Origin: an uncultured Chlorobium sp.
GTDB lineage: Bacteria > Bacteroidota > Chlorobiia > Chlorobiales > Chlorobiaceae
DNA: 64,000 nucleotides
NCBI GenBank assembly: GCA_964451845.1
Contig: CAYVJF010000001.1
Coordinates: 14,616-78,615, forward strand
Direction of reading: 5' to 3'
In this document: in pieces, positions 60,411-64,000 of the stretch
Position numbering within the stretch: position 1 is the first letter of the stretch
How the letters are laid out: each line of letters begins with the position of its first letter
The notes under the pieces: generated by a model
Seen by the model: only the letters and a program-made list of their open reading frames with translations
Told to the model about the DNA's origin: nothing
The model's database searches: none
Program-made: the position numbers and the translations under genes

Positions 60411-60810
60411 GGGGATGACAGGCTTTTGACAGGATAGGTGTGCGATCCAGTTGCACTCCGAGTTTCAGCATGGATGGACTCGTTAAAGAAGTCTATGTGA
60501 CAAATAGATGCAGACGATTATTCGTATGCAATGGCTGCTTAATTAGCAAAAGTTAATTTAATCGGCCATCGTTCGATGAAGGATGCGCTTACTCTGAAAC
60601 CATCGAATGGCATAACCCGCGCTTGAGCCATTGCTCGCGCAAGTAAGCTTCATTCGCTTGTTTTCCGGAAAAGCGGATGAATAACGCTCCGGAATAGTGT
60701 TCCGAACTTTGTCGGTGAAGTCGTGGAACATGAACGTTAAACATCGAAGATGAGTGTGGTGGCTGTTTCAAGCAATGTTCTGGACGCGGGTTCGATTCCC
60801 GCCATCTCCA
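60411..60810 (+). ncRNA. ssrA: tmRNA; tag peptide ADDYSYAMAA encoded at 60510-60542
   Basis: 5' GGGGATG pairs with 3' CATCTCC; T-arm GCGGGTTCGATTCCCGC; tag frame GCA GAC GAT TAT TCG TAT GCA ATG GCT GCT TAA. Confidence 0.95.
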
Positions 60811-60845
60811 CAAGTAAGCGGTCTTATGAAATCCGCAAATGTCCG

Positions 60846-60880
60846 AAAACCCCTGAGGAATCAGGGGTTTTTCTGTTTTT
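60846..60880 (+). terminator. Intrinsic terminator after ssrA (potentially bidirectional)
   Basis: AAAACCCCTGA-GGAA-TCAGGGGTTTT followed by T-rich sequence. Confidence 0.7.
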
Positions 60881-60924
60881 ATCGGCCTTGTATTGTCCGG
60901 CGAAGTTTTTTGTGCAGCAAGAAG

Positions 60925-60965
60925 AAAAGCGCAAAAGAAGATGGCAGTCCTTCCTTTTGCGCTTT
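60925..60965 (-). terminator. Intrinsic terminator closing the sqr/small-ORF transcript
   Basis: Minus strand AAAGCGCAAAAGGAAG...CTTCTTTTGCGCTTT followed by TCTTCTT, ~33 nt after the small ORF stop. Confidence 0.65.
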
Positions 60966-60998
60966 CAAGTTGCAACAGTGTATCGATTGCTCTCTCGA

Positions 60999-61115
60999 TC
61001 AGGCTCTCTTGCTGTGATCGACCGCTTTGAGAATCTTGACATTCAGTACAATGAACCGCCAGAACTGGTAGAGCTTGTTCTTCATCAGGAATCTATCGAA
61101 CTTTGAAGGTCTCAT
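60999..61115 (-). CDS. 38-aa small protein downstream of sqr (MRPSKFDRFLMKNKLYQFWRFIVLNVKILKAVDHSKRA)
   Basis: ATG 61115 to TGA 61001-60999; 37 nt after the sqr stop and followed by a terminator; basic/aromatic amphipathic helix pattern. Confidence 0.65.
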   Translation of the reverse strand: MRPSKFDRFLMKNKLYQFWRFIVLNVKILKAVDHSKRA

Positions 61116-61152
61116 AATGAGTCTCGGGTTTAACGTGTTTTAAAAATCTTCA

Positions 61153-62586
61153 TTATTCGGGAATAATCTGCCAGCCGATGCGTCCCCTGAACTTGTGCAT
61201 GAAGGTTGTCTCGACCATCTGCTTCAGCCATGCGCCTGACAAACCGCGTTCGACCCGGGTGACAAACAGGTCGCGCCCTTCCTTGTTGTCGTAGCGGGTG
61301 TGATCCGGCACGACCGGGTAGATAATCATGACAATGGCCGAACCGCTCCAGAGCGATTTACCGTTCGATGCAATACAGACAGCCAGCATTTCCGACATGC
61401 GCTCGCGGTGGGTCATGCGCCCGGTTTTCACCAGATCGATGATATTCAGTGCTACGACCCTGCCGATAACACCGGAAATCATTCCCGTTCTCGGAGCGCC
61501 CGGAACAATGGTCGTGCCGTTTTTCGTGGTATGCGGAACAGAAATCGGGCCCGGAGGCGCGAATGCGATACCTGCGGAAAAAATGTTCTTGTAAAGAGGA
61601 TTCTGATAGTTTGCCGGCCATGCGTCAGGAGTTTTTACCAGCTCGTCATAACTCAGTCCGTAAATACCGTCTGCAAGAACAAAGCCTCCGGGGTTGGTGA
61701 CTTTGGCGGAAATATCCTCGCCGTTCTTGTCGTAGAACGGGAAGGTAACACCTCGTGACTGCGGGATAAGCATCGCGAAATCATACTCGTCCTCCCCGAA
61801 ATTTCCCTCGAAGTTCTCCCAATAGATTTTTTTCTCGTCGACCTCTTTGACGCCGCGCCGAACCGACTTCTCGAGGCCGAACTCATCCATGGTAGCCTCG
61901 ATCATGTCGGCTCCGCGTGCAATTCTGCCGCCTCGCTTCACGACATTAATGCCCCCGACACCGAAGTCGCCGATTGCCGGTTCATTGGTCAGGTAAGCAA
62001 GTTCCGCCTTGTTTCTGATACCGCGTCGCGTCAGATCGTGGTGTATATTGGTGATATACTCGAACGCCGCACCCTGGCAGGCGGCCATCGGGTGACCCGT
62101 GCCGATAACCATGCGCTGCTTTTCTCCGCGTTTCATTCGTTCGACCGACTCGAGATAGGCATCGCGAGCCTTGATGGCCGTGTCGTAATGGCAGATCGAT
62201 TCAGTGTTTTTGTCAGGCCCGAGCCCGGGAGTAGCCGGATAGTTCATATGAGCGCCGGTCGCAACGATAAGGTAGTCATACGCAACATTGGTTTCGCCGC
62301 CTCCGTTCGCCTGATCGACCACCACATAATTTTCATCGGGATGAACCGAGGTTACCTTGCCCTGGACAAAGTTCACCCTGAACCTGTCGTAAATCGGTTT
62401 GAGCTTGAATGTGGTTTCTTCCGGTTTCACCGCATCGATGCCCACCCATACCCAGGACGGCACGAAGCCGAAATAATCGAACTTGTGTATGACCGTTATC
62501 TCATGCTCTTTTCCTATGGCGTCTCCCAGGTACATCGCCGCAGTATGCCCTGCGAACCCGGCGCCAATGATCGCAACCTTTGCCAT
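61153..62586 (-). CDS. sqr: Sulfide:quinone oxidoreductase, type IV (SqrD/SqrX-like)
   Basis: GAGFAG Rossmann fold, [39 protein letters not shown]-terminal WQIIPE, as in Chlorobi SqrD-type enzymes. Confidence 0.88.
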
Positions 62587-62749
62587 TGCCTGTTGTCTCC
62601 GTTATTCTCGTTAGAACGCACCGGCGGCGAAAGTTATCCTTTCGCTTTCCGATTCCGCCCTTTACCGGTGCGCTGTAGTATAAATAAATTCCGTTGCTCT
62701 GTGTGAAAGAAGATAGAAAAGATAGAAAATAAAGCTCTCCGTCGCAAGC

Positions 62750-62915
62750 AGTAGGGTATTGGCTTCTCTTGTTGAAAAGTGGAAGGAATTTTTGTTTCTG
62801 AACGAAGAAATCAGCTCAACACCGCGAGACCTTTTCGCCCCGTTTCCACTCGCGGCCATCCGGGGCTCCGGCGGGAGTTCCCGGTACAAAGGATCAGAAT
62901 CGATTGTGACGACAT
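62750..62915 (-). pseudogene. arsC: Decayed arsenate reductase ArsC (LMW-PTP family) 5' fragment
   Basis: ATG 62915, 20 nt after the permease stop: MSSQSILILCTGNSRRS (canonical LxLCTGNSCRSQMAE), followed by a frameshift before ATG GCC and an early stop at 62813-62811. Confidence 0.7.
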
Positions 62916-62935
62916 GATAAGATGGATGTTAACGG

Positions 62936-64000
62936 TTACAAAAGCAGGTTGAAGACAAATCCGACGATGATGATGCCCGAGGCGACAATGCCCGCAAAAA
63001 CAGCGATCAGGCGGGGTTTGAGGACCTTGCGCAGGATGATCATTTCAGGAGCCGACAGCGCGATAACGCTCATCATGAACGCCATGACGGTACCGGTAGC
63101 AGCTCCTTTGCCGACGAGTGCTTCTGCGACCGGCAGCACGCCGACAATATTGGTATACATGGGCACCCCAAGAAGTACGGCGGCAGGAACCGACCACCAG
63201 GTTTGTTCACCCATAATCGAAGCCATGAATTCCTCCGGCACATACCCGTGAATAACTGCTCCTGCGCCGACGCCCAGCACAATAAATCGCCAGACCTTGC
63301 CGACGATCGAGCGGACTGACGCAAAGCCTTCTTTGATACGCTCGTTCCAGGATAACACAGGCTGTTTCCCTTCTGCGGGAGAAATGCCCTTCTGCAGGCT
63401 CTGTACCCACTCTTCGAGACTACTCTCCATATTCAGGTTTTCTATGACCAGTCCGGAAACCAGGGCTATCATGAAACCCATCAGGACATAGGTCAGGGCA
63501 ATCTGCCAGCCGAACATGCCAAAGAGCAGAAACAGGGCAACCCCGTCGACCATCGGCGCAGCAATAAGAAAAGAAAAGGTAACGCCGAGCGGCACGCCAG
63601 CCTGCAGGAACCCGATAAACAGCGGTACAGCCGAGCAGGAACAAAACGGTGTGACCATCCCGAGCAGTGCAGCCAGCGCATTGCCTGTCCCCGCTCTGCG
63701 TTTGGCAAGCAGTTCACGGGTTCGTTCCGGAGAAACAAACGTGTGCACCACGCCCATCACAAAGACGACAGCCGTCAGCAGGAGCAGCACTTTCGGGATT
63801 TCATAAAAGAAAAAATGCAGGCTTTCCCCTGAACGGCTCGATCTCGTGAGTCCGATCAGCCCGACAAGCAGGTCGGCAAGCTGTTCCAGATGAGTAAAGA
63901 GCACAATCCAGATAAACGCAGCGGTAGCCATGCCAGCCAGCAGTGCCCGGTTTTTTAGCTGCATGCTGTTGATGTTGTTCTTCGGGAACTCTGCACTCAT
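62936..64000 (-). CDS. ArsP/DUF318 family permease
   Basis: TPFCSCSAVP, GVPMY, GT.MAFMMSV.ALS.PE; multiple TM helices; start at 64000 or 63964. Confidence 0.85.
   Translation of the reverse strand: MSAEFPKNNINSMQLKNRALLAGMATAAFIWIVLFTHLEQLADLLVGLIGLTRSSRSGESLHFFFYEIPKVLLLLTAVVFVMGVVHTFVSPERTRELLAKRRAGTGNALAALLGMVTPFCSCSAVPLFIGFLQAGVPLGVTFSFLIAAPMVDGVALFLLFGMFGWQIALTYVLMGFMIALVSGLVIENLNMESSLEEWVQSLQKGISPAEGKQPVLSWNERIKEGFASVRSIVGKVWRFIVLGVGAGAVIHGYVPEEFMASIMGEQTWWSVPAAVLLGVPMYTNIVGVLPVAEALVGKGAATGTVMAFMMSVIALSAPEMIILRKVLKPRLIAVFAGIVASGIIIVGFVFNLLL

Follow-up and report, generated by a model that had tools for sequence, protein, structure and literature searches.

A conserved microprotein gene directly downstream of a sulfide:quinone oxidoreductase gene in Chlorobium and in other bacteria

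In the Chlorobium sp. DNA analysed here (a stretch of 64,000 nt, called the window throughout), the gene for sulfide:quinone oxidoreductase (SQR) is followed on the same strand by an open reading frame of only 38 codons. The locus raises the question of whether so short a frame is a gene and, if it is, whether its product works with the enzyme encoded upstream. An earlier reading of the letters of the window, hereafter the sequence-only reading, had proposed that it encodes an accessory subunit of a type IV SQR.

The reading frame downstream of sqr

The frame lies on the minus strand at 60999-61115, from an ATG at 61115-61113 to a TGA at 61001-60999, and encodes the 38-aa peptide MRPSKFDRFLMKNKLYQFWRFIVLNVKILKAVDHSKRA; a spacer of 37 nt (61116-61152, minus strand) separates it from the sqr stop codon (TAA, 61155-61153). 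The sequence-only reading had given the coordinates, the peptide and the 37-nt distance exactly, and had pointed out that the ribosome-binding site is weak. The Shine-Dalgarno sequence is indeed reduced to GAG (61125-61123, positions -10 to -8), GAGG being found at the same position in most same-genus relatives of the gene. The ATG is the sole possible start within the 46-codon open frame. As the local 7-kb stretch is overlapped by 99 ORFs of 25 aa or more, a length of 38 codons is by itself no better than chance, and it is conservation that carries the reality of the gene.

When 61 related genomes were searched in all six frames, the peptide was recovered, as an open frame devoid of stops, in 18 of the 19 genomes of the genus, and also in part of a second genus (identities of 65-97%). 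The remaining genome of the genus, 78% complete, lacks SQR as well as the peptide. Across 22 Chlorobiaceae loci the positions of the ATG and of the stop codon are fixed, and the upstream spacer drifts. The protein-coding status claimed for the ORF was upheld by the pattern of substitutions: dN/dS is about 0.05-0.13 (Nei-Gojobori), and variable columns number 18, 13 and 35 of 38 at codon positions 1, 2 and 3, respectively. Between phyla, synonymous sites are saturated (pS 0.63-0.95) and a 25-residue core, NKLYQFWRFIVLNLKILKAVDHSKR, is kept through the use of different codons. Given the codon-position pattern and the preservation of the core at synonymous saturation, neither the RNA nor the opposite strand can account for the conservation. 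In conclusion, it is virtually certain that the microprotein is encoded by a real, conserved gene partnered with SQR.

The ORF had been described as unannotated. This is correct for the exact 38-aa peptide, which has no entry in a collection of 15 billion proteins, and incorrect for some of its homologues, which reference genomes list, wherever they annotate them, as 'hypothetical protein' (for example AAM71366.1 / Q8KG50 in Cba. tepidum and Clim_2404 in Chl. limicola). Five representative peptides, taken from both of the subfamilies described below, gave no Pfam or NCBIfam match at E-values up to 1-10; similarly, no DUF1641 or CydX-type profile of Pfam-A/NCBIfam was matched, and no PDB chain relevant to the microprotein was found.

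The terminator scan detected no terminator-like site in the 37-nt spacer between sqr and the microprotein gene. A putative intrinsic terminator of the sqr-microprotein operon is located further downstream, at 60918-60965 (minus strand): a 40-nt hairpin (60965-60926), which begins 33 nt past the microprotein stop codon, is followed by UCUUCUUG at 60925-60918. The 101-nt stretch that contains the hairpin (60900-61000) folds with -30.7 kcal/mol (z = -2.9 compared with shuffled sequences); the loop of the hairpin exceeds 8 nt, and for this reason it escaped the consensus terminator scan. In 19/19 Chlorobiaceae loci a hairpin and a U-run are present 9-45 nt past the microprotein stop codon, with stem sequences that differ from locus to locus, which supports the claim that transcription terminates after the microprotein gene and not after sqr. 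Judged from these signals in the DNA, sqr and the microprotein gene probably share one transcript. In other phyla the gap between the two genes is often only 8-17 nt, a spacing consistent with translational coupling.

The operon is converged upon by a tmRNA gene (ssrA, 60411-60813, plus strand; tag peptide ADDYSYAMAA), which has its own terminator at 60845-60872 (plus strand), opposed to that of the operon at a distance of about 50 nt. This neighbouring tmRNA was the only Rfam match, none being obtained on the microprotein region. A plus-strand ORF of 118 codons (60750-61106) was rejected as a gene; it is spurious, with its start within the tmRNA.

The upstream enzyme and its linkage to the microprotein

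The gene upstream of the microprotein gene (61153-62586, minus strand) encodes a protein of 477 aa with the C-terminus ...GWQIIPE, which matches Pfam Pyr_redox_2 (2e-18) and has its best PDB matches in the SQRs of A. aeolicus (1e-38) and A. ferrooxidans (1e-34). A GxGxxG-type FAD-binding Rossmann motif is present at residues 6-14 (IIGAGFAGH). The only cysteines of the protein, C132, C170 and C404, fall in SIC, CxG and CIA motifs in a phmmer alignment to 3HYV; we take them to be the counterparts of the catalytic cysteines C124, C156 and C347 of the A. aeolicus enzyme. The AlphaFold2 model of an orthologue that is 91% identical gave Foldseek TM scores of 0.82-0.91 against the SQR structures of A. 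aeolicus and A. ferrooxidans. The upstream gene does encode an SQR.

The assignment of this enzyme to type IV did not hold. In Cba. tepidum TLS (genome G036), the SQR encoded at 112431-113885, which from its position and the locus numbering would be CT0117 (SqrD), is 45% identical to the window SQR, and a maximum-likelihood tree places the two enzymes in sister clades split with 100/100 support; the window enzyme is therefore outside the SqrD clade. Its clade is probably the one named 'SqrX' (Gregersen et al., 2011, as cited in PMC4288042); SqrD is described in the cited paper as common in Proteobacteria. Upstream of sqr, 349 nt (62587-62935, minus strand) separate it from an ArsP-like permease gene (62936-64000, minus strand); within this region, an ORF of 34 codons encodes the motif CTGNSRRS, which is ArsC/LMW-PTP-like, and two promoter-like sites were noted at 62941-62914 and 62932-62903.

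Homologues of the microprotein were searched for in one genome per species (185,579 species), and relatives were found in 243 genomes. Among the 80 best loci of these genomes, 79 have an SQR orthologue immediately upstream on the same strand, and in the exception the peptide lies 17 nt from a contig end. The upstream orthologues of these best 80 loci are 55-94% identical and end 8 to about 270 nt before the peptide. Conserved relatives thus adjoin SQR genes, as the sequence-only reading had anticipated, and the motif that it had named (KFD.F...N..YQ..RF..LN.KIL) was found beside SQR genes of other phyla. Viewed from the enzyme, all 22 orthologous SQR genes of the family Chlorobiaceae (22/22) carry a microprotein gene behind them; when both clades are considered in the 61 related genomes, 40 of the 41 SQR genes do so, the 41st being at a contig end.

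An SQR-like gene was also found directly upstream in 11 of 12 further exact-protein loci, which come from Anaerolineales, Myxococcales, Chloroflexota, Rummeliibacillus (Bacillota), Sulfuricurvum (Campylobacterota), Polynucleobacter and metagenome contigs. No third gene is consistently linked to the pair in these further loci, and the flanking genes differ by lineage, which indicates that sqr and the microprotein gene travel as a self-contained two-gene module. More than ten phyla carry the microprotein behind this SQR superclade; SQR-linked copies are present in Chlorobiota, Chloroflexota, Calditrichota, Fibrobacterota, Krumholzibacteriota and Acidobacteriota, as well as in Ignavibacteriota, Myxococcota, Bacillota, Campylobacterota and Betaproteobacteria.

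The 41st SQR gene mentioned above (L127, G020 C145) belongs to a Chlorobaculum-group genome, and its contig ends 199 nt past the stop codon. This terminal segment (1545-1743), which follows a SqrD-type gene, is GC-rich with internally repeated segments and no visible peptide ORF, and an inserted repeat may separate the SQR and peptide genes there. In [Clostridium] ultunense Esp (HG764817.1, L126, 3290-3680), the SQR gene is deleted to its last 20 codons (...KGNVGWSMIPE) and a 59-codon peptide ORF is still open behind the remnant; L042, which is syntenic with this locus, has kept a full SQR of 473 aa. L126 may be a relic of recent origin; alternatively, it hints that the peptide is able to persist without the enzyme. 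Two peptide genes are present in G002, a MAG of the genus (C26:58920-59033 and C59:11178-11291; L043 and L048), encoding peptides 97% and 92% identical to that of the window. The second copy is at a contig start, with just the 3' end of sqr in front of it; either the gene has truly been duplicated or the bin mixes several strains.

Members of the family were recognized by the motif Q-x-x-R-F-x-x-L-N-x-K in a peptide of 28-60 aa whose gene immediately follows that of an SQR with the C-terminus ...IPE. The window peptide has this core (Q17, R20, F21, L24, N25 and K27). Among 78 homologues, Q17, R20, F21, N25, I28, L29, A31, V32, D33, K36 and R37 are invariant, and there is no conserved Cys. In a second subfamily the peptide reads MGxNKxKAYYDEAYPPVPxxxTLxWRKNxxWQxxRFxVLNxKxxRIVxGGHS and adjoins SQRs that are only 41-45% identical to the window SQR; the N-terminal AYYDEAYPPVP is also fixed in this SqrD-linked subfamily. 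The peptide of Cba. tepidum TLS (G036), 52 aa long, is identical to AAM71366.1 / Q8KG50. The microproteins of one subgroup (L037 652-978; P0121, P0122 and P0105) have an additional conserved segment of 30-70 aa at the C-terminus (...HSKRLPxFxxKYKVSY...), which brings them to 68-111 aa, and are still encoded directly after the SQR gene.

Placed on the SQR tree, the peptide subtype changes 3 times, compared with 13.6 times for shuffled labels, and 0 of 200 shuffles gave a number as low; the microprotein has co-diversified with SQR. The 25-residue core is more conserved than the enzyme: for pairs in which the SQRs share 61% identity, the identity of the peptides is 81% in the core and 46% in the N-terminal 13 residues. 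This difference between core and enzyme, together with the fixed AYYDEAYPPVP, points to specific protein contacts.

Possible roles of the microprotein

The peptide was predicted by AlphaFold2 to form a helix over roughly residues 5-31; it is cationic (pI about 10.5, compared with about 6.4 for SQR) and moderately amphipathic (hydrophobic moment, muH, about 0.42), in agreement with the amphipathic, basic-flanked helix that had been suggested. A standard transmembrane helix was rejected, as the best 18-residue Kyte-Doolittle window reaches 1.05, compared with the at least 18 residues at about 1.6 or more that such a helix has; this window holds R20, N25, K27 and K30, and both ends are basic. The SqrD-linked subfamily, with values of 1.4-1.6, is borderline for a transmembrane helix. 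Conservation extends to all faces of the helix, and an invariant Asn is inside the hydrophobic face. With its moderate muH and nearly every core position fixed, the helix looks more like one that packs against another protein than one that faces lipid alone.

In the majority of SQRs, a pair of C-terminal amphipathic helices provides both the attachment to the membrane and the quinone site (PMC9666304). In peptide-linked SQRs, one C-terminal helix was predicted, at residues 449-466 and 451-468 of two AlphaFold2 models. All peptide-linked SQRs, over a range of 39%-100% identity, end in ...[IV]PE followed by the stop codon, with GW before it (61156-61164, minus strand, in the window), and the invariant Lys and Arg residues of the microprotein may contact this constant free end of the enzyme. 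Type VI SQRs also have one helix, and Cba. tepidum shows no second peptide gene whose product could accompany its type VI SQR, CT1087; possession of a single helix does not, as a general rule, imply that a peptide is needed.

Enzymes of the SqrD/'SqrX' superclade probably work with an unstudied small partner protein. Obligate synteny and co-diversification suggest that this partner is an accessory subunit, and we lean towards a cationic amphipathic helical subunit docked at the membrane and quinone side of SQR. A subunit is favoured because the linkage is ancient and obligate, because the two proteins have co-diversified, and because of the conservation on all helix faces, the Pro-rich motif of the SqrD subfamily and the single helix of the enzyme. 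In such a complex, a helical and strongly basic microprotein, made from the transcript of SQR, would be a dedicated partner of the enzyme and most likely a stoichiometric subunit. Its helix, spanning approximately residues 13-33 (NKLYQFWRFIVLNxKILKAVD), would pack against the enzyme through its hydrophobic face and the buried Asn25, the proposed packing partners being the single C-terminal amphipathic helix and the invariant ...GW..IPE tail of SQR, and the Lys and Arg residues would face the anionic membrane surface. The microprotein would thereby complete the membrane-docking and quinone-access region, for which type I SQRs use two helices of their own. We infer binding, the binding site and an effect on activity from these patterns. 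A more tentative extension, which we consider rather unlikely, is that the microprotein is essential, either as one wall of the quinone channel or as the factor that places the signal-peptide-less SqrD/SqrX enzymes on the correct face of the membrane.

AlphaFold2 was run on two natural in-frame read-through fusions, L047 (14-residue linker) and L071 (4-residue linker), in which the stops were read as Gly, with an alignment of 117 rows, 22 of them paired. The SQR part was modelled with pLDDT above 90, and the peptide part with only 30-55, so that the peptide is not confidently docked on SQR. No similarity was detected between the microprotein and the C-terminal helices of SQRs of known structure. 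A profile search of 1.84 billion cluster representatives, in which 62 clusters matched, found no fusion of SQR with the peptide, and hence no Rosetta-stone evidence.

That AlphaFold2 found no stable docked pose also agrees with the action of a biogenesis or targeting factor, which would assist SQR transiently in folding, flavin loading, membrane insertion or movement to the correct face. Such a factor, for which the same synteny and co-diversification would be expected, is the most serious alternative to a subunit, and we regard it as possible but improbable. The SQR of Rhodobacter capsulatus, reportedly described by Schuetz et al. in 1999 as periplasmic without a signal peptide and in a manner that depends on its C-terminus, counts for it. 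So does the difficulty of making active SQRs in foreign hosts (PMC9666304). However, a core that is near-invariant across phyla is more typical of a permanent interface, and no chaperone or translocase motif was found in the microprotein with Pfam and NCBIfam.

Clearly less probable again is an independent small membrane protein that does not bind SQR and serves in polysulfide or sulfur handling, or in quinone or sulfide sensing. A cationic hydrophobic helix and the putative co-transcription would suit such a protein, but the subtype of the peptide goes with the clade of its SQR, there is no consistently linked third gene, and no conserved Cys is available for sulfur chemistry; the ORF that is open in [Clostridium] ultunense Esp next to the last 20 codons of SQR also agrees with independence, but it is a single case that may be a recent relic.

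Finally, it is hardly conceivable that there is no separate protein and that the ORF, which sits in the sqr 3' region, acts as an RNA or 3'-UTR element or as a C-terminal extension of SQR made by read-through or frameshifting, since the codon-position pattern and the synonymous saturation reveal selection at the protein level, Rfam detects nothing at the microprotein, spacers vary from about 8 to about 270 nt with an ATG belonging to each copy, and the share of loci in frame with sqr (30/78, 12 of these 30 with a single intervening stop) is the one third expected by chance, many in-frame loci having two to six intervening stops. As the in-frame share is that of chance, read-through is not the functional form, and a read-through or frameshift fusion is largely refuted.

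Novelty and comparison with known systems

If the microprotein is a partner of SQR, as we favour, the model of how the monotopic SqrD/SqrX enzymes meet the membrane and quinone would change. To our knowledge, this class of SQR has always been regarded as an enzyme of one polypeptide. The partner would then also be a likely reason why active SQR is difficult to produce in foreign hosts (PMC9666304). If it proves to be an essential part of the enzyme, the enzymology, heterologous expression and mutant phenotypes of SqrD/SqrX would need to be read again, with a second gene having been disregarded. Genome annotation would change too, because the sqr-microprotein pair is a precise marker of this SQR superclade. 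The placement of the window enzyme in a sister clade of SqrD corrects its 'type IV' label and at the same time widens the finding, as both SQR clades carry the peptide gene.

Two annotated genes belong to the same superfamily as the window microprotein gene: AAM71366.1 / Q8KG50 of Cba. tepidum TLS, directly after a SqrD-type SQR gene, and Clim_2404 of Chl. limicola DSM 245, directly after an SQR gene of the window type. A non-exhaustive literature search for a small SQR partner, or for CT0118/CT0116, found no relevant description, and the supplement of a paper on Cba. tepidum outer-membrane vesicles does not mention the peptide gene. Microprotein subunits of respiratory enzymes are known already, as is the association of YjlC/DUF1641 with NDH-2; within the literature searched, the microprotein family itself is new, as would be any accessory protein for the SqrD/SqrX class.

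Three known systems resemble the one described here. The first is provided by the C-terminal helices of type I SQRs (A. aeolicus, 3HYV/3HYW; A. ferrooxidans, 3T31), which are likewise short amphipathic helices with aromatic and basic residues in a monotopic SQR, and which attach the enzyme to the membrane and form the lining of its quinone channel (PMC9666304). Unlike them, the microprotein is separately encoded and has no sequence similarity to these helices, the enzyme that it accompanies keeps one helix, and its docking is a proposal.

The second is YjlC (DUF1641) of Bacillus subtilis, a small protein encoded in the operon of a flavoprotein, the NDH-2 YjlD, with which it appears in the integrative model 9A63. 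YjlD and SQR are both monotopic flavoprotein quinone reductases with two dinucleotide-binding domains, and the structural matches to the SQR model include chain B of 9A63 (rank 32). YjlC forms a folded domain, about 140 aa in length, whereas the microprotein is a single helix of 38-60 aa without a Pfam match, and no homology between the two is implied.

The third is CydX, a protein of less than 60 aa that is encoded right after the cytochrome bd oxidase genes, was long overlooked and is needed for the activity or stability of the oxidase. The microprotein is similarly shorter than 60 aa, encoded immediately after the gene of an enzyme, and long overlooked. In contrast to CydX, which has a true transmembrane helix and belongs to an integral membrane complex, the microprotein has a helix that holds an Arg, an Asn and two Lys residues, and its partner is a monotopic flavoprotein.
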